Shown: positions 3,230 through 61,728 of the stretch, piece by piece
Layout of the letters: every line of letters begins with the position of its first letter
Numbering within the stretch: the stretch's first letter is position 1
Origin: an uncultured bacterium
GTDB lineage: Bacteria; Cyanobacteriota; Vampirovibrionia; Gastranaerophilales; Gastranaerophilaceae
Length of the DNA stretch: 64,000 bases
Direction of reading: 5' to 3'
Assembly (NCBI GenBank): GCA_949298985.1
Contig: CASFYV010000013.1
Location: forward strand, 96,229 to 160,228
Made by a program: the position numbers and the translations under genes
The notes under the pieces: model-generated
The model's database searches: none
Seen by the model: only the letters and a program-made list of their open reading frames with translations
What the model was told of the DNA's origin: nothing

Positions 3230-4771
3230 ATGTCTATTGAAGGTTTTAACAATTATAATAATCCATATTATTTTCAAAGTAATATTGGTTTTCGAGCTAA
3301 TCAAGAAAAAGAAAAAGATAAAGATAAAAGCTTGATTATAAAAAAGCCTGTGGAAAAAGTTGAAAATGTAATCAATAAAACAGTAGATACATTTGTTAAA
3401 ACGGATGGGAATGAAGAGAAACAAAAGAAATATCGAAAAGCTGTAACAGTAGGGAGCACGGTACTTGTTATCGGTGGTTTAATGGCGTTATTAAACCCTA
3501 AGTTTTCAGGTAAGTTTATTAATAAAATGAGAAAAAATGCTTCAAAAGCAAATGCAGAAGCTTTAAAAGGAAATAGAACATCCCTAAAAGCTCAATTTAA
3601 TCAATTTAAATCAGATTTTTTATCATTTGGAGCTGATTTTTTACAATTTACAAATACTGCTAACGCAGGTAAAGATCAACTATTTAAATGGTTCTGTGCT
3701 GATAAAAAATCTTTTAATAAAGTAAAAAATGAAACAGTAAGAAATGTTTTAAGAAAAATAGATGATGGTTTTACAACTGTAATGAGAAAACCTCATAATG
3801 CTATTACAAATATGTTTGACAGTATAAGTAAAAATACTGTTCATTCTAAATACAATGGGGCTTCTAAAAAGCTTAATGAATTAGAAAATTTAATTCAAAG
3901 TTATAAAACAAAACTTCCATATTCTAAACAATTAGAATTAGAAAATAAATTAAAAGAAATAACAAAGGCTCGTGAATATTTTTCAAAAAATCAAGTAGAT
4001 TCACGTTTACAAGAACAAGAAAAATTAATGTCTAACTTAGAAAAAGACTTTAGAGCAAAATTCCAGGAATATCGTAAGAATTTTAAGTGGTTTAAAGCTG
4101 AAGGTACATTCAAAGAAAAATCACACCAAAATTATCAAAACTTTAGGGAAAACATGTCTTATTGGGCAGAAGATATTATGATGCCAGATAGAAACAAGCT
4201 TGAACAAAATGGAAAAGATATCGTAAATACCATTTTAGGCGATGGAAAAACTCAGCAAGGAAAGTATAATGAAATAATCGATATACTTTCACCATTTATT
4301 TCAAAAGAAGAAAAATTAGCTCTTGAAAGTACATTAAAATCATCTGGTAAAACACTTAGAAAAGCGAATTACAGTGAAACAGTTGAATATTTTGATAAGA
4401 AACGTGATTTAATGTTAGGAGGAGCACCTACAGATATCTTAACTGCGTTATTTGGTATTGGAATGAGTGGTGTCGCAATAGGTACCGCTGACACCAAAGA
4501 AGATAGAATCTCAAGAGCTATAACAGTAGCATTTCCAGCTATAGCCGGTTTAGGTGTTTCAACTGCTCTTACTGCAATGTTAGTATCCGGAGCAAAGAGT
4601 CTTGGTATAGGTTTTGCATCATCAATAGGCTTAAGTATGATTGGAAACACTGCTGATAAATATTTGAATCCAAAAACTAATTTAATGGCAAATCAATCAA
4701 ATAATTTGAATAAAAACCAACAAACCGCTACAAAACAACAGATTAAAAATCAGGAGGTAGTAAATGCTTAA
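3230..4771 (+). CDS. Hypothetical protein with one N-terminal hydrophobic helix, a long helical body and a Gly-rich hydrophobic C-terminus
   Basis: 513-aa ORF; hydrophobic segments near aa 70-90 and 400-480; N-terminal NIGFRA motif. Confidence 0.8.
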   Translation: MSIEGFNNYNNPYYFQSNIGFRANQEKEKDKDKSLIIKKPVEKVENVINKTVDTFVKTDGNEEKQKKYRKAVTVGSTVLVIGGLMALLNPKFSGKFINKMRKNASKANAEALKGNRTSLKAQFNQFKSDFLSFGADFLQFTNTANAGKDQLFKWFCADKKSFNKVKNETVRNVLRKIDDGFTTVMRKPHNAITNMFDSISKNTVHSKYNGASKKLNELENLIQSYKTKLPYSKQLELENKLKEITKAREYFSKNQVDSRLQEQEKLMSNLEKDFRAKFQEYRKNFKWFKAEGTFKEKSHQNYQNFRENMSYWAEDIMMPDRNKLEQNGKDIVNTILGDGKTQQGKYNEIIDILSPFISKEEKLALESTLKSSGKTLRKANYSETVEYFDKKRDLMLGGAPTDILTALFGIGMSGVAIGTADTKEDRISRAITVAFPAIAGLGVSTALTAMLVSGAKSLGIGFASSIGLSMIGNTADKYLNPKTNLMANQSNNLNKNQQTATKQQIKNQEVVNA

Positions 4772-5283
4772 TTTAATTTATGGACTATTTCTAAAACATT
4801 TTTCTTTAATGTTTCATAATCCTTGTTATTGTAAATTAGAAAATCCCAATCCTGAATATTATCTAAATCAACTTCAGTAATGTCGTTTTCTCCGACTAAT
4901 TTGCCGCCTCTAGCTTCTCGAATTTCTCGATTAGCTTCTACTCTGATTGAAATTGCACCGGCTTTTTTAAATACTTCATATTCATGTTTTATTCTTACAT
5001 CTGTTACAACGATATTACCATCTTGAGAAATTATTTTTTCAAGCCAAAAATCAGGACTTTGTGAACGTCCCCAATTACCTAAATCAATTAATCCTTGACG
5101 GTATTGAGCTTTGTTAGTTTCTATTTCTTGATAAGTTAAATTGTGCATTTTCCCATATTCAATTTTTATGATATCACCCATTGCACAACGTCTAAAACTT
5201 GGCATTGAATCTATTAAAATTTTTGCTGCAGTATCTTTGCCTGAATATTGTTTTCCTGAAAATATTATAATTTTATTTGCCAT
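4768..5283 (-). CDS. P-loop nucleoside-monophosphate / phosphomevalonate kinase-like protein
   Basis: [11 protein letters not shown]alker [21 protein letters not shown]; start placed at MANKIIIF (5283). Confidence 0.7.
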
Positions 5284-5509
5284 TATTTCCCTCCAAAGGT
5301 AATGGATCATATCCGCCTTCATTTAACGGATGACATTTGCATATACGTTTTAATCCTAATATTCCACCTTTAATTAATCCATAATGTTCTATTGCTTGTT
5401 TTGTATATTCAGAACAAGTAGGATAAAATCTACATCTTGGTGGTGTATAACTCGAAATCTTTTGATATATTTTTATTAAAAATAAAATAAATTTTTTTAA
5501 CATATTCAT
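5273..5509 (-). CDS. yidD: Membrane protein insertion efficiency factor YidD
   Basis: [10 protein letters not shown]...GL.RI.KCHP...GGYDP signature. Confidence 0.95.
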
Positions 5510-60691: not shown

Positions 60692-60741
60692 AAATTATTT
60701 GTTTTTGTTTATAAATAATTAGTAAATTTATATAAAAATGA

Positions 60742-61728
60742 TTATTTTTTTAATGGATTTTCATTAAATAATTTATTTAAATATATTTTACCTGCATTTA
60801 CTCTTTCTTCTTTTGTTTTATATTGGGTAGACATACTTTCAAGATTGTTAAGAATTTCATATACATTTGTTTTTATATTACATTTTATTAAAGCTCTTTG
60901 CCAAATTTCAATGTCTTCTTTGGAATTTGCAGGAAGCATATTGGCGTTTACAGATGCTATTAAAACTCTCTGGAATATTTTTCTTACAAATTTAATATTC
61001 TTGCCTGCAAATGGAGCTTCTTGATTTCTGCTTGCTCTGTTAATAAATATATTTAATAATTTTGCAGTAGTATTCATATAAGATTTATCTTGTAATGTAT
61101 CAATTTCATCAACTAAATATAATTTCCCTGAACGTGTTACTATATTGTTAGGGTTTAGATAATCAAATAGGCAGTATTGACGTGGACCTAATTTTATTTC
61201 ATTTAATTTTTCTATATCTTTAAATAAAATATTATAACTATCTTGAGGCAATTTAGCAAAAGTTGGAAGATAAGTATTAATATAATATTGGTTAATTTTG
61301 TTTTTACTTAAAAATTTAGTTAAATGTTCAGGAATCCCTGCAGGAATATGTTTTCCAACATTTGGTAAAATCTGTAGTTTCCCAATTTCTATAACAGCTT
61401 CACCAAAATAATTTTTTAATTTAGAAAAGATTCCTCTGCCTAATTTTAACAAATCATTTTCTTTAAAATCTTCGGGTTTATAATTAAGAGGAACTCTTGC
61501 CGCATATTTATGAGTTATTTTATATAAAGCATTATGACTTCCTTCCTCAATATATTTTGGAGGTATAAGAATTGTATTCAAAGCATTTGCAATTTCTTTA
61601 ATTAAATTTTTTTCTTCTGATTTTGATAATGTTTTTTTTAATAACGCTTTATCAATACTATTCTGAAGTCTTCTTGAATTACCTTGAAAATTTTGATTGT
61701 AGTTATATGTGGGGAAATTTATATTCAT
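60742..61728 (-). CDS. Atypical protein-kinase-like protein
   Basis: EEGSHNALYKI, YAARV, DYLNPNN (D-x4-N), LYLVDE. Confidence 0.6.
   Translation of the reverse strand: MNINFPTYNYNQNFQGNSRRLQNSIDKALLKKTLSKSEEKNLIKEIANALNTILIPPKYIEEGSHNALYKITHKYAARVPLNYKPEDFKENDLLKLGRGIFSKLKNYFGEAVIEIGKLQILPNVGKHIPAGIPEHLTKFLSKNKINQYYINTYLPTFAKLPQDSYNILFKDIEKLNEIKLGPRQYCLFDYLNPNNIVTRSGKLYLVDEIDTLQDKSYMNTTAKLLNIFINRASRNQEAPFAGKNIKFVRKIFQRVLIASVNANMLPANSKEDIEIWQRALIKCNIKTNVYEILNNLESMSTQYKTKEERVNAGKIYLNKLFNENPLKK

Follow-up and report, generated by a model that had tools for sequence, protein, structure and literature searches.

The window, by which we mean the whole 64,000-nucleotide stretch of Gastranaerophilaceae DNA that was analyzed, encodes nine proteins with a shared N-terminal leader and a weak tenth case:

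3230..4771 (+), membrane protein of family 4, 513 aa; leader 3230-3298, MSIEGFNNYNNPYYFQSNIGFRA
21812..22453 (+), dual-specificity phosphatase, 213 aa; leader 21812-21850, MKIKDVTPINFNA
22478..23332 (+), orphan, 284 aa; leader 22478-22534, MLNINPMNSYSKSNINFKS; transmembrane (TM) helix near aa 74
23339..23794 (+), orphan, 151 aa, paralogue of 22478; leader 23339-23395, MLNINSMNNYSKSNTSFKS; TM helix near aa 79
23809..27669 (+), orphan, 1286 aa; leader 23809-23880, MKIQQEVHTPTIYKINNENVNFHG
36884..38662 (-), GH77-like protein of family 3, 592 aa; leader 38624-38662, MQINSISSLNFQR; C-terminal TM anchor
39968..40792 (-), AvrB-fold protein of family 1, 274 aa, adjoining hisS; leader 40745-40792, MKVENNSYFYRTSFQS
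49082..49525 (+), small membrane protein, 147 aa; leader 49082-49105, MNSISFCG; TM helix near aa 72
50643..51335 (-), orphan, 230 aa, the weak tenth case; start 51297-51335, MEIKCKTHPNFYN
60742..61728 (-), kinase-fold protein of family 2, 328 aa; leader 61681-61728, MNINFPTYNYNQNFQG

It also holds flagellar genes:

9650..15728 (-), flagellar type III export/basal-body cluster (Pfam FliE, YscJ_FliF, FliH, FHIPEP), made up of:
15390-15728, FliE
13670-15337, FliF
12543-13583, unassigned ORF in the fliG slot
11767-12534, FliH
9650-11740, FlhA
58847..60691 (+), flagellin, 614 aa, with a GLUG-motif insert (Pfam Flagellin_N, Flagellin_C, Glug)

The bare four-residue motif

An earlier note had proposed that nine unrelated proteins, and a weaker tenth, share the motif [NSG]F.[GSAR] near the N-terminus. 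All ten N-terminal strings that it quoted were found at their coordinates and strands, with the ATG at 51335 being the likelier start of the 51341 ORF, but 22478 and 23339 are tandem paralogues and cannot be counted as unrelated. In line with the claim that a Sec signal peptide is missing, none of the ten shows a Sec-type hydrophobic core: the maximum Kyte-Doolittle value over 10 residues was at most 1.04, compared with 2.7 to 3.3 in four genuine signal peptides that the window also encodes. Of the 69 called proteins, 13 had the motif within their first 25 residues (window count, 14 hits observed versus 2.8 to 3.8 expected), at a rate 5.5 times that in the remainder of the proteins. However, its supposed absence from housekeeping N-termini did not hold, and the following housekeeping or non-orphan proteins also matched:

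33086, L20 ribosomal protein (housekeeping), GFKG
56340, GT9 heptosyltransferase (glycosyltransferase), NFGG
13583, ORF in the fliG slot, GFAA
47180, Gly/Phe-rich small ORF

Enrichment over controls extended beyond the window but was modest (1.6-fold): in a hold-out set of 563 N-termini from other-species families, with no family from the window, 39 (6.9%) matched, versus 4.4% of internal-Met pseudo-N-termini (p = 0.003 to 0.012). The four-residue motif alone is weak, but what shows in it is one end of a larger, real feature.

Architecture and conservation of the leader

We read this larger feature from the sequences as Met-x-Ile/Val, then a spacer, then [Asn/Ser/Thr]-Phe-x-[small residue or Arg] (the Phe element, or Box 2). 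The spacer comprises 0 to about 25 residues, is predicted to be disordered, and is rich in Asn, Tyr, Ser, Gln, Pro and Thr and nearly devoid of Asp, Glu, Lys and Leu (Asp plus Glu, about 1 to 3%; Lys, about 3 to 4%); Asn and Tyr are enriched, while Ser is not. The [N/S/T]-Phe element marks the exact start of the folded part, and in AlphaFold2 models of two unrelated folds (AvrB-like and kinase-like) it lies at the predicted disorder-to-order boundary. The median position of the Phe is 11 to 17, but it can nearly touch the start, as in MQVTFEAN of the AvrB-like family.

The refined pattern Met-x-[I/V]...[N/S/T]-Phe was found in 23 of 676 family N-termini and in 0.25% of 6000 internal-Met controls, a fold enrichment that is optimistic because the pattern was composed after part of the test data had been seen. 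Ile or Val at position 3 was associated with the Phe motif (odds ratio 5.9, p = 1e-6). Conservation within families is independent of the refined pattern: four families (AvrB-fold, kinase-fold, GH77-like and a large membrane-protein family) conserve Ile3 and Phe across their homologues, and those homologues that were placed are Gastranaerophilales. Ile3 and Phe are kept order-wide, while the spacer is free in length and sequence. The Ile at position 3 is encoded by each of its three codons, and therefore selection acts on the protein. The shared leader on dispersed, mostly orphan proteins was borne out in this form, with order-wide purifying selection at the amino-acid level.

About 20 additional orphan families from 80 other species also bear the leader (for example, unrelated families starting with MNINPINTAMQPNFKG, MRIQAINTNTNFKG and MNIINKVDSQSFGA). 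It is carried by about 6% of genes, often in small clusters, with four consecutive leader genes at 21812-27669, three in L041 and three in L013. Most carriers have no known domain; the leader was strongly associated with proteins in which Pfam recognized no domain (odds ratio 15.9, p = 8e-4), and 18 of 20 leader proteins from other species had none. Because it lies upstream of the attached Pfam domains, is predicted to be disordered up to the Phe, occurs on Pfam-less proteins and is encoded by genes in runs, the leader behaves as an add-on tag. Judged by these patterns, the leader is real and apparently undescribed before; it has the look of a new tag for sorting or export, and a secretion function is plausible. 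In the order Gastranaerophilales (gut Melainabacteria) the leader is lineage-wide, on otherwise unrelated, mostly uncharacterized proteins.

Proteins that carry the leader

The AvrB-fold protein (40792) matched Pfam AvrB_AvrC (PF05394) with 44.7 bits, above the Pfam threshold, and PDB AvrB with E = 1.5e-4. Its AlphaFold2 model (pLDDT 88.5, residues 1-13 predicted disordered) matched AvrB in Foldseek with TM 0.60-0.64, which suggests a full AvrB fold. In GTDB species representatives, the gene was located on at least 111 genome stretches; the 80 that were examined came nearly all from gut or rumen Gastranaerophilales MAGs. Ile3 was present in 72% of 118 analyzed homologues and the Phe in all of them, at positions 2-31. 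The kinase-fold family (61728) has 62 homologues; in the 61 analyzed, Ile3 was present in 85%, Phe (rarely Tyr) fell within positions 11-33, and the Phe was followed at +2 by an invariant Gly. The AlphaFold2 model of this protein (pLDDT 91.6), with predicted disorder at residues 1-10 and a predicted helix from aa 17, gave Foldseek matches to APH (aminoglycoside), PI3K and Lpg2603 (Legionella) kinases. For the GH77-like protein (38662), Pfam Glyco_hydro_77 spans aa 45-283; the 120 homologues listed had Ile or Leu at position 3 in 96% and Phe at position 11 in 108; their Box 2 reads NF[QEGK]R, and a TM helix is conserved at the C-terminus. The membrane protein at 3230, whose TM helices begin near aa 70 and aa 430, had no match in the Pfam search; its 393 representative homologues have starts such as MSFGYY...[NS]F[KR][AG] or MINQV.N...F.

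Of the other leader proteins in the window, the 21812 phosphatase (Pfam DSPc, E = 6.8e-11) has a catalytic domain beginning near aa 28-37, downstream of the leader. It matched XopH weakly, one of its Pfam hits was to a polymorphic-toxin DSP family, and its homologues L072:2743-3282(-) and L077:2549-3088(-) carry MNIYTDTKINFTA. The 22478 protein had no match in the Pfam search, and its C-terminal region, after the TM helix, is coiled-coil-like by eye only. The 23809 protein is a less typical member because of two Glu in its leader, and its former label, HD/ART-like, found no support from any Pfam or PDB match. The 51335 protein, a homologue of which (L069:5937-6593(+)) begins with MEIKCNFNPYYRN, is a doubtful member because its tail contains both acidic and basic residues. 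The 49082 protein contains two more copies of Box 2, NFRG (49181-49192) and SFKG (49262-49273); its homologue L069:7751-8128(-) has YFKG and TVNFRG, and L057, L066 and L069 share DTV[NS]F[KR]G at aa 38-45. A TM helix was present in 5 of the 10 window proteins, with an onset at aa 70-79 in four different ones. The earlier comparison of these proteins with an effector arsenal was partly upheld by the AvrB fold, the phosphatase and the predicted kinase fold, but families 1 to 3 are core, syntenic and vertically inherited and do not form a variable arsenal.

The flagellar machine and the leader

Apart from the flagellar cluster, the window has no export machine, and no injectisome genes were seen there. 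A sigma-28-like sequence (TAAA-N14-GCCGAT) lies upstream of fliE; none of 166 leader genes had a sigma-28-type promoter upstream, and no flagellar co-regulation signal was seen. We found no conserved linkage of leader genes to flagellar genes: the core, syntenic genes of families 1 and 2 have hisS and an ArsP-type transporter gene as their neighbors, and the position of the flagellin beside the kinase-like gene is specific to the present lineage. The flagellin is a bona fide flagellar export substrate with an N-terminus (MALTINTNLSS...) that is leader-like in composition, whereas FliE, the window's own early substrate, has no leader. Promoters, linkage and spacing gave no result that connects the leader with the fliE-flhA machine or the flagellar gate.

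Possible functions of the leader

We tentatively propose, as a possibility that falls somewhat short of probable, that the leader is a Sec-independent export tag for the flagellar type III export gate and that the attached domains act outside the cell. The tag would be read in the cytoplasm, most likely by FlhA/FlhB/FliPQR. Many Gastranaerophilales are reported to retain this gate even without a complete flagellum, and about 75% of their genomes reportedly keep only a subset (flhB, fliI, flgG) that has been postulated to serve secretion (bioRxiv 10.64898/2026.04.24.720558; PMC4040986). The aliphatic N-terminus and the Phe element would together work as the bipartite signal does in early flagellar subunits, and the uncharged, disordered spacer would allow the chain to enter the channel. 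After export, the AvrB-fold, kinase-fold and phosphatase domains would do their work outside the cell, and members with TM helices would be exported or inserted membrane proteins. The type III-like character claimed earlier for these N-termini agrees with their predicted disorder, aliphatic position 3 and near lack of acidic residues. However, about 6% of genes is large for a set of type III substrates, and the Phe spacing is shorter than early flagellar substrates need. Given the TM helices in half of the window proteins and the GH77-like tail anchor, a role at the cytoplasmic face fits equally with export.

Such a role is described by a second reading, which we consider rather doubtful: the leader may be an intracellular docking or sorting motif that stays in the cytoplasm and adds a short strand (aliphatic-x-Phe-x-small) to a common partner. 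This partner could be a membrane-associated scaffold, chaperone, protease adaptor or regulator that localizes or regulates lineage-specific enzymes and membrane proteins. The leader lies on the predicted cytoplasmic side of the TM members, the tail-anchored GH77-like family belongs to an enzyme family that is normally cytoplasmic, and the three copies of Box 2 in 49082 resemble a short linear binding motif; the core, syntenic families and the missing co-regulation signal point the same way. Nevertheless, no candidate partner was found, and the strict N-terminal place, Met-x-Ile and charge-free disordered spacer are more typical of export signals. In addition, AvrB-fold and XopH-like domains are otherwise known from secreted effectors.

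We regard as unlikely a reading of the leader as a cleaved propeptide or as the signal of another, unrecognized export or processing route; a dedicated peptidase would then cut at or beside the Phe element so that the mature protein is activated, released or exported. The predicted disorder-to-order boundary at the Phe element in two unrelated folds and the variable length and sequence of the spacer are as in propeptides, and a gene of the M16 (processing-peptidase) family immediately precedes the four-gene leader island, but this adjacency is unconserved and M16 has only two members in 80 loci. The Firmicutes L27 propeptide, which is cut by the Prp protease, is a precedent for Phe-based N-terminal cleavage; a system of this type is unlikely here because L27 of a related genome starts with MAHKKG and has no extension. 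None of the leader genes in the window has a linked transporter gene. A double-glycine leader was rejected, as the residues preceding the small residue are K, Q or R and not Gly.

We think it very unlikely that the leader lacks a dedicated function and reflects AT-rich codon bias, selection for unstructured, A/U-rich 5' coding sequence, slippage-prone Asn/Tyr tracts and chance matches to a loose motif of four residues. The genome has a GC content of about 29%, the modestly enriched bare motif matches housekeeping proteins, spacer lengths vary like slippage products, and start-site scoring recognized no ribosome-binding site for 38662, 40792, 51335 and 61728. Even so, this reading is largely refuted by the within-family conservation, in which Ile3 and Phe persist in four families at 45-65% overall identity, and the position 3-Phe association and the use of all three Ile codons also count against it. 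Nor does AT bias, raised earlier as a possible source of the motif, explain the spacer, since GAA, GAT and AAA are AT-rich and Asp, Glu and Lys are common in the proteome, yet these residues are scarce there. Finally, an import signal of bacteriocin-like toxins, a TonB-box-like strand for entering competitor cells as in group B colicins, colicin M and pesticin after their release, is extremely improbable: the internal copies DTVSFKG, DTVNFRG and DTVSFRG would fit the TonB-box pattern (D/E-T-aliphatic-x-hydrophobic-x-A/G), colicins typically have disordered, Asn/Ser-rich translocation domains at the N-terminus, and the phosphatase has its polymorphic-toxin hit, but most leaders have no D/E-T prefix, no immunity-like or lysis genes were recognized beside leader genes, many members have TM helices, and the families are core and syntenic.

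Comparison with known export signals

For export through the flagellar gate, the closest known signals are those of early flagellar (rod and hook) subunits, in which a small hydrophobic N-terminal signal is combined with a Phe-based gate-recognition motif for docking on FlhB, as with the aliphatic 2-SIAV-5 and the Phe motif 36-FLTLL-40 of FlgD; in Salmonella, at least 19-24 residues are needed between the two signals, and at least 30 residues precede the Phe motif (Bryant et al. 2022, PMC8983047). The leader is similar in having two short elements in a predicted disordered N-terminus, an aliphatic position 3 and a downstream Phe, with a linker that tolerates unrelated polar sequence and with no cleavage or hydrophobic core. 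F-x-x-x-hydrophobic is found in two of the four large families, the AvrB-like (FQANL) and the GH77-like (FQRRL), but not in the kinase-like family (FQGNS) or in many singletons. In contrast to the Salmonella separation, the Phe of the leader can be as early as position 4 in addition to its low median; the leader conserves Asn/Ser/Thr before the Phe and a small residue or Arg at +2 and not, in general, a hydrophobic residue at +4; its cargo consists of enzymes and membrane proteins, not axial subunits; and the window's FliE does without it.

The rules for type III effectors of P. syringae call for an aliphatic amino acid at position 3 or 4 and exclude acidic ones from the first 12 positions (Schechter et al. 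2012, PMC3338616), and the leader shares this aliphatic position and acid-free start as well as its polar, disordered and uncleaved character. The cargo families overlap with those of injectisome effectors (AvrB/XopAH and the weak XopH-like phosphatase match). Injectisome signals, however, are Ser-rich and have no sequence consensus, whereas the leader is rich in Asn, Tyr and Gln and has one, Met-x-Ile ... [NST]-Phe, and the window shows flagellar genes only. In concept, the proposed export resembles that of the Cia proteins of Campylobacter jejuni, also a gut bacterium, whose flagellar system takes flagellar and non-flagellar substrates that both have N-terminal export sequences (Christensen et al. 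2009, PMC2764114). The Cia set is small, with no shared motif reported, and its flagellum dependence was shown experimentally, while the proposed export tag has a consensus and is carried by about 6% of genes. The AvrB/XopAH effectors (PF05394; PDB 1NH1, 2NUN, 8TWO), of which 40792 has the full predicted fold, are also among the closest known systems. Unlike the effector genes of plant pathogens, 40792 is a core gene beside hisS, and its N-terminus is the Gastranaerophilales leader.

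The four-residue motif at N termini of the window

The ten N termini quoted in the earlier note (proteins 3230, 21812, 22478, 23339, 23809, 38662, 40792, 49082, 61728, and the weaker 51341, each named by the window coordinate of its start) all read in the sequence as quoted. The absence of a Sec signal peptide claimed there also held, since none of the ten has a Sec-like hydrophobic core by hydropathy. Within the first 40 amino acids, hydropathy averaged over 10 residues peaked at 1.04 or less in all of them, compared with 2.7 to 3.3 in four signal peptides of the window, which excluded a Sec or lipoprotein signal peptide, in which a basic N terminus precedes a hydrophobic stretch at least ~10 residues long.

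The window (GC content, ~29%) has 69 called genes, mostly ordinary housekeeping genes, and 13 of the 69 proteins carried [NSG]F.[GSAR] within the first 25 residues. N-terminal matches numbered 14, with 2.8 to 3.8 expected from composition, and occurred at 5.5 times the internal rate. The motif had not been seen in housekeeping N termini, but it was present in L20, a GT9 glycosyltransferase, the open reading frame (ORF) at the position of fliG, and a small ORF rich in Gly and Phe. The proteins had also been called unrelated, which does not apply to 22478 and 23339; these are tandem paralogues, 42% identical overall. Around their starts (22438-22597 and 23299-23458, + strand) 123 of 160 bases, upstream sequence included, are identical, and the first 45 codons are nearly the same, while the remainder has diverged to ~30 to 40% identity. 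The near-identical starts suggest that the leader end is under strong selection or has undergone gene conversion.

For the wider comparison, the AvrB-like protein (40792) was searched against GTDB species genomes and gave 80 loci, nearly all labelled Candidatus Gastranaerophilales or Melainabacteria and derived from gut and rumen metagenomes; the best were 94% and 88% identical. From 1.29 Mb of these 80 other species 1236 proteins were called, and together with 67 automatic calls from the window (1303 proteins in total) they clustered into 676 families. In the hold-out families of other species the N-terminal enrichment of the motif persisted, but weakly (6.9% versus 4.4%; P = 0.003 to 0.012). 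N-terminal k-mer enrichment was dominated by syntenic orthologues when all proteins were used and by signal-peptide and transmembrane words with one representative per family. NF, SF, INT, and I.SF were enriched 1.6- to 3.7-fold at family N termini, which was borderline after multiple testing. Sequencing runs containing the window came from chicken, bird, and gut metagenomes; all were DNA, and no RNA run with this organism was found in a search for expression or leaderless transcripts.

A longer leader conserved in four large families

Homologues of four window proteins reveal a longer, conserved N-terminal feature: Met-x-Ile/Val, an uncharged spacer predicted to be disordered, and a Phe element ([N/S/T]-Phe; Box 2) where the fold begins. 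The AvrB-like protein (39968-40792) had 374 matches, of which 120 were listed and 118 analysed. These 118 start with M-x-I, a spacer of variable length, and [S/N/T]F[Q/G/K][A/V/I]N, with Ile at position 3 in 72% and the Phe in all, at positions 2 to 31. The kinase-like protein (60742-61728) had 62 homologues, and the 61 analysed start with MNI, the spacer, and x-F-[Q/K/R]-G-x-S-R; Ile3 was found in 85%, Phe (rarely Tyr) at positions 11 to 33, and Gly16 was invariant. The GH77-like protein (36884-38662) had 205 matches, and among the 120 matches listed the start was M-[K/D/Q]-I, with I/L/V at position 3 in 98%, the Phe fixed at position 11, NF[Q/E/G/K]R as Box 2, and a conserved C-terminal transmembrane anchor. 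A paralogous family of 610 to 640 amino acids has the same start. The family of the membrane protein 3230 (3230-4771; 393 representatives at 50% identity) starts MSFGYY...[NS]F[KR][AG], or MINQV.N...F in distant members, with I2/V5 as the small nonpolar residues.

Position 3 was Ile or Val in 77 to 90% of the AvrB-like and kinase-like families. The position-3 Ile codons ATT, ATA, and ATC were used 22, 19, and 11 times, and because all three occur, the constraint lies on the amino acid. The spacer contained 21 to 25% Asn and was also rich in Tyr, Ser, Pro, Gln, and Thr. Asp plus Glu accounted for 0.6 to 3.4% of it and Lys for ~3 to 4%; in the proteome Lys makes up 9.5%, Glu 7.2%, and Asp 5.3%. 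The AvrB-like, kinase-like, and GH77-like genes are core, syntenic genes, and the AvrB-fold protein was kept in every species examined.

The leader in other families and species

In the 80 other species the leader begins the proteins of some 20 families that have no relation to those of the window.

Leader starts in unrelated families, examples: MNINPINTAMQPNFKG, MRIQAINTNTNFKG, MRILPVNNFLSNQNFKG, MNTINNNSLSFQA, MQIQTVQAQSFQA, MNIINKVDSQSFGA, MKVNSDRDISFKS

Met-x-[I/V] with the Phe element was found at 23 of 676 family N termini versus 15 of 6000 internal-Met controls, a fold enrichment that is optimistic because the pattern was written after part of the data had been seen; conservation within families is independent of that pattern. 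Ile/Val at position 3 was associated with the Phe element (odds ratio, 5.9; P = 1e-6). Leader genes made up 74 of 1154 genes (6.4%) in the other-species loci, the query family excluded, and they occurred in runs, with four consecutive genes at 21812-27669 and three consecutive genes in each of two other-species loci (L041 and L013). Known domains are missing from most of the leader proteins examined; they were absent from 18 of 20 leader proteins of other species, and within the window the leader was associated with the lack of one (odds ratio, 15.9; P = 8e-4). A sequence tag marking a functionally linked orphan set would be a first handle on those proteins.

Predicted structures and attached domains

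AlphaFold2 models built from the family alignments reached pLDDT values of 91.6 (kinase-like) and 88.5 (AvrB-like). Residues 1 to 10 and 1 to 13, respectively, were predicted to be disordered, and because predicted order starts at the Phe, the Phe element would mark where a free tail gives way to the fold in two unrelated proteins. Foldseek matched the kinase-like model to aminoglycoside, PI3, and choline kinases and to the Legionella kinase Lpg2603, with probabilities mostly of 0.8 to 0.99 and low TM scores. The AvrB-like protein scored 44.7 bits against PF05394 (cut-off, 23.2) and 55 bits, below the subfamily cut-off, against the NCBIfam model XopAH. Its profile matched AvrB in the PDB (E = 1.5e-4), and its model matched AvrB structures at TM 0.60 to 0.64 with a probability of 1.00. 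By its above-cut-off PF05394 match and predicted AvrB fold, 39968-40792 is a member of the AvrB/XopAH family.

In the dual-specificity phosphatase 21812 the leader precedes the domain, and 49082 contains three copies of the Phe element. A transmembrane helix is present in 5 of the 10 window proteins, starting at amino acids 70 to 79 in four. PDB sequence searches with 61728, 23809, and 12543 returned nothing useful.

Comparison with known export signals

Pseudomonas syringae effectors follow three rules (PMC3338616): position 3 or 4 is aliphatic or Pro, the first 12 positions lack acidic residues, and Ser exceeds 10% of the first 50 residues. The first held in 30 of 30 leader families versus 48% of others, a result that is partly circular because position 3 belongs to the leader definition. 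Acidic residues were absent from the first 12 positions in 63% of leader families versus 40% of others. The Ser rule did not hold (20% versus 14%); Asn (21%), Tyr, and Gln were enriched instead. We regard the feature as a putative N-terminal targeting leader of type III-like character. Our literature search found no description of a shared N-terminal leader in this order, though its flagellar genes are described.

Early flagellar subunits carry a two-part signal, a small-hydrophobic N terminus and a Phe-based motif that docks on FlhB (PMC8983047). All four leader families have the small nonpolar residue near the start. The gate motif, F-x-x-x-hydrophobic (PMC8983047), has Leu/Ile at +4 in the AvrB-like (FQANL) and GH77-like (FQRRL) families, whereas the kinase-like family (FQGNS) and roughly half of the singletons lack such a residue there; the Phe is conserved in all families. 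Salmonella early subunits require a spacing of at least 19 to 24 residues between the two signals (PMC8983047), while the leader Phe lies far closer to the start (median position 13, 17, and 11 in the AvrB-like, kinase-like, and GH77-like families; minimum, 2 to 4). Judged by sequence, the leader fails on spacing as a member of this signal class, and the motif itself is ambiguous. Internal copies of the Phe element at amino acids 34 to 45 were the only ones that would satisfy the Salmonella spacing. A TonB-box-like DTV[NS]F[KR]G occurs at amino acids 38 to 45, the same distance as the gate-recognition motif of Salmonella early subunits, beside leader-like starts in unrelated proteins of three species (L057:2847-4007, L066:15740-16612, and L069:7751-8128, all - strand).

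Proposed flagellar export and alternative readings

The leader is strictly N-terminal, predicted to be disordered, and uncharged, its position 3 is aliphatic, and its aromatic anchor is conserved; these are properties expected if a tag is recognised ahead of folding or on a free N terminus. The flagellar features of the window are as follows.

9650-15728: flagellar cluster of FliE, FliF, an unassigned ORF, FliH, and FlhA, the only export machinery in the window
~15756-15779, - strand: sigma-28-like promoter TAAA-N14-GCCGAT upstream of fliE, ending ~27 nt before the start codon
58847-60691, + strand: flagellin, 614 amino acids, with GLUG-motif repeats in the central region

We tentatively place first the reading that the leader is an export signal for the flagellar gate, because it resembles generic type III signals and, in its aliphatic start and Phe, the two-part signal, because flagellar systems export nonflagellar proteins bearing N-terminal signals (PMC2764114), and because flhB, fliI, and flgG are reported to be kept in most Gastranaerophilales without a full flagellum, for which a secretion role has been postulated (bioRxiv 10.64898/2026.04.24.720558; PMC4040986). 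The gate would read the aliphatic N terminus and the Phe motif, the latter docking on FlhB. Such a tag could explain why nonmotile members keep flagellar export genes. It is possible, if doubtful, that the retained gate acts as a general secretion system in Gastranaerophilales, with ~6% of genes encoding substrates marked by the consensus leader. If so, no earlier type III signal would have been readable from sequence, and this lineage of common gut commensals, relatives of the Cyanobacteria, would have a large unexplored secreted set with AvrB-fold, kinase-fold, and phosphatase proteins. The Gastranaerophilales are uncultured and widespread in human, ruminant, and bird guts. Type III signals defied definition for decades for want of a consensus, and a conserved, readable tag in one lineage would make type III recognition directly testable.

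No sigma-28 promoter (TAAA-N14-17-CCGATA and variants) was present in the 150 nt upstream of any of 166 leader genes, and sigma-28 co-regulation of these genes was rejected on that basis, though fliE has such a promoter; the 110 nt preceding the flagellin start contain no sigma-28-like site. No strong k-mer was shared upstream of the 166 genes, and the mildly enriched TAGCAAA/GCAAAA looks like part of -35-type elements. Conserved linkage of leader genes with flagellar genes was not found. The kinase-like gene adjoins flagellin only in this lineage, where the flagellin is an insertion with a nitroreductase gene on one side and the kinase-like gene on the other; the locus L081 lacks it at that site. 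FliD was isolated in two loci (L002 and L053), no rod or hook genes occurred in the other-species loci examined, and FliE of the window lacks the leader.

A role at the cytoplasmic face fits the tail-anchored and transmembrane members equally well, and a cytoplasmic docking or sorting motif is a rather unlikely alternative to flagellar export. Even without a secretion role, the leader would be a sorting or regulatory motif that spans the order and has not been described. Less probable still is a cleaved propeptide or a signal for another export route. L27 that is cleaved by Prp is extended at its N terminus, and the extension ends in Phe-Phe ahead of Ala-Ser-Lys; the propeptide reading is weakened by the L27 of the one related genome examined (L058), which starts MAHKKGMGSTRNGRDS without an extension and so speaks against a Prp/L27 propeptide, and by the adjacency of an M16 peptidase to leader genes, which is not conserved. 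Double-glycine leaders, handled by peptidase-C39 ABC exporters, end in Gly-Gly, Gly-Ala, or Gly-Ser; they were ruled out, the residue preceding the small residue being K/Q/R/G/C, mostly K or Q, and the window showed no ABC exporter of the C39 type. That composition or translation effects account for the whole leader is very improbable, being contradicted by its conservation and by the position-3 codons. Least credible is a TonB-box-like import signal; the consensus of the TonB box, a D/E-T-aliphatic-x-hydrophobic-x-A/G strand in a disordered N terminus, fits the internal copies only (DTVSFKG, DTVNFRG, and DTVSFRG).

Neighbouring observations

At 12543-13583 (- strand), between fliF and fliH in the usual place of fliG, lies a 346-amino-acid ORF without a Pfam or PDB match; its start, MPIEGFDYKGF, is similar to that of protein 3230, MSIEGFNNYNN. 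The AvrB-like and kinase-like genes have a common upstream element, TAGCAAAA..TTTTTAGC[TA].ATTT (40793-40835 and 61729-61775, - strand), which ends 10 to 15 nt before the ATG. Neither gene has a Shine-Dalgarno sequence, and their transcripts may be leaderless or unusually initiated. The region directly after the four-gene leader island looks, from its gene content, like a variable region.

27702-29163, 29675-30212, and 30697-31092, - strand: a kinase toxin of the HipA type, preceded by a small partner ORF, is among these
Same region, 27702-31092, - strand: a second small overlapping ORF pair, possibly toxin-antitoxin
Same region, 27702-31092, - strand: tmRNA gene, tag ANKVVSMADYRAQRLAA

An 80-amino-acid ORF at 47180-47422 (+ strand), with a good ribosome-binding site, encodes a product in which nearly every residue is Gly, Phe, Cys, Asn, or Ser (MCLGFGSIYNTT...GFGFNSHC...). 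Cys-rich ORFs of 66 to 69 amino acids lie beside the kinase-like gene in two other loci (L081:11048-11251 and L083:11127-11327, + strand), and a Cys-rich ORF at 58365-58574 (- strand), beyond the flagellin insertion, is of similar size. The small ORF at 49529-49807 (- strand) has a better start that gives MSFDFNDINPISK..., followed by a GGGLGGGG tract, and its first residues are similar to the MSFGYY/MSFDY starts of the 3230 family.
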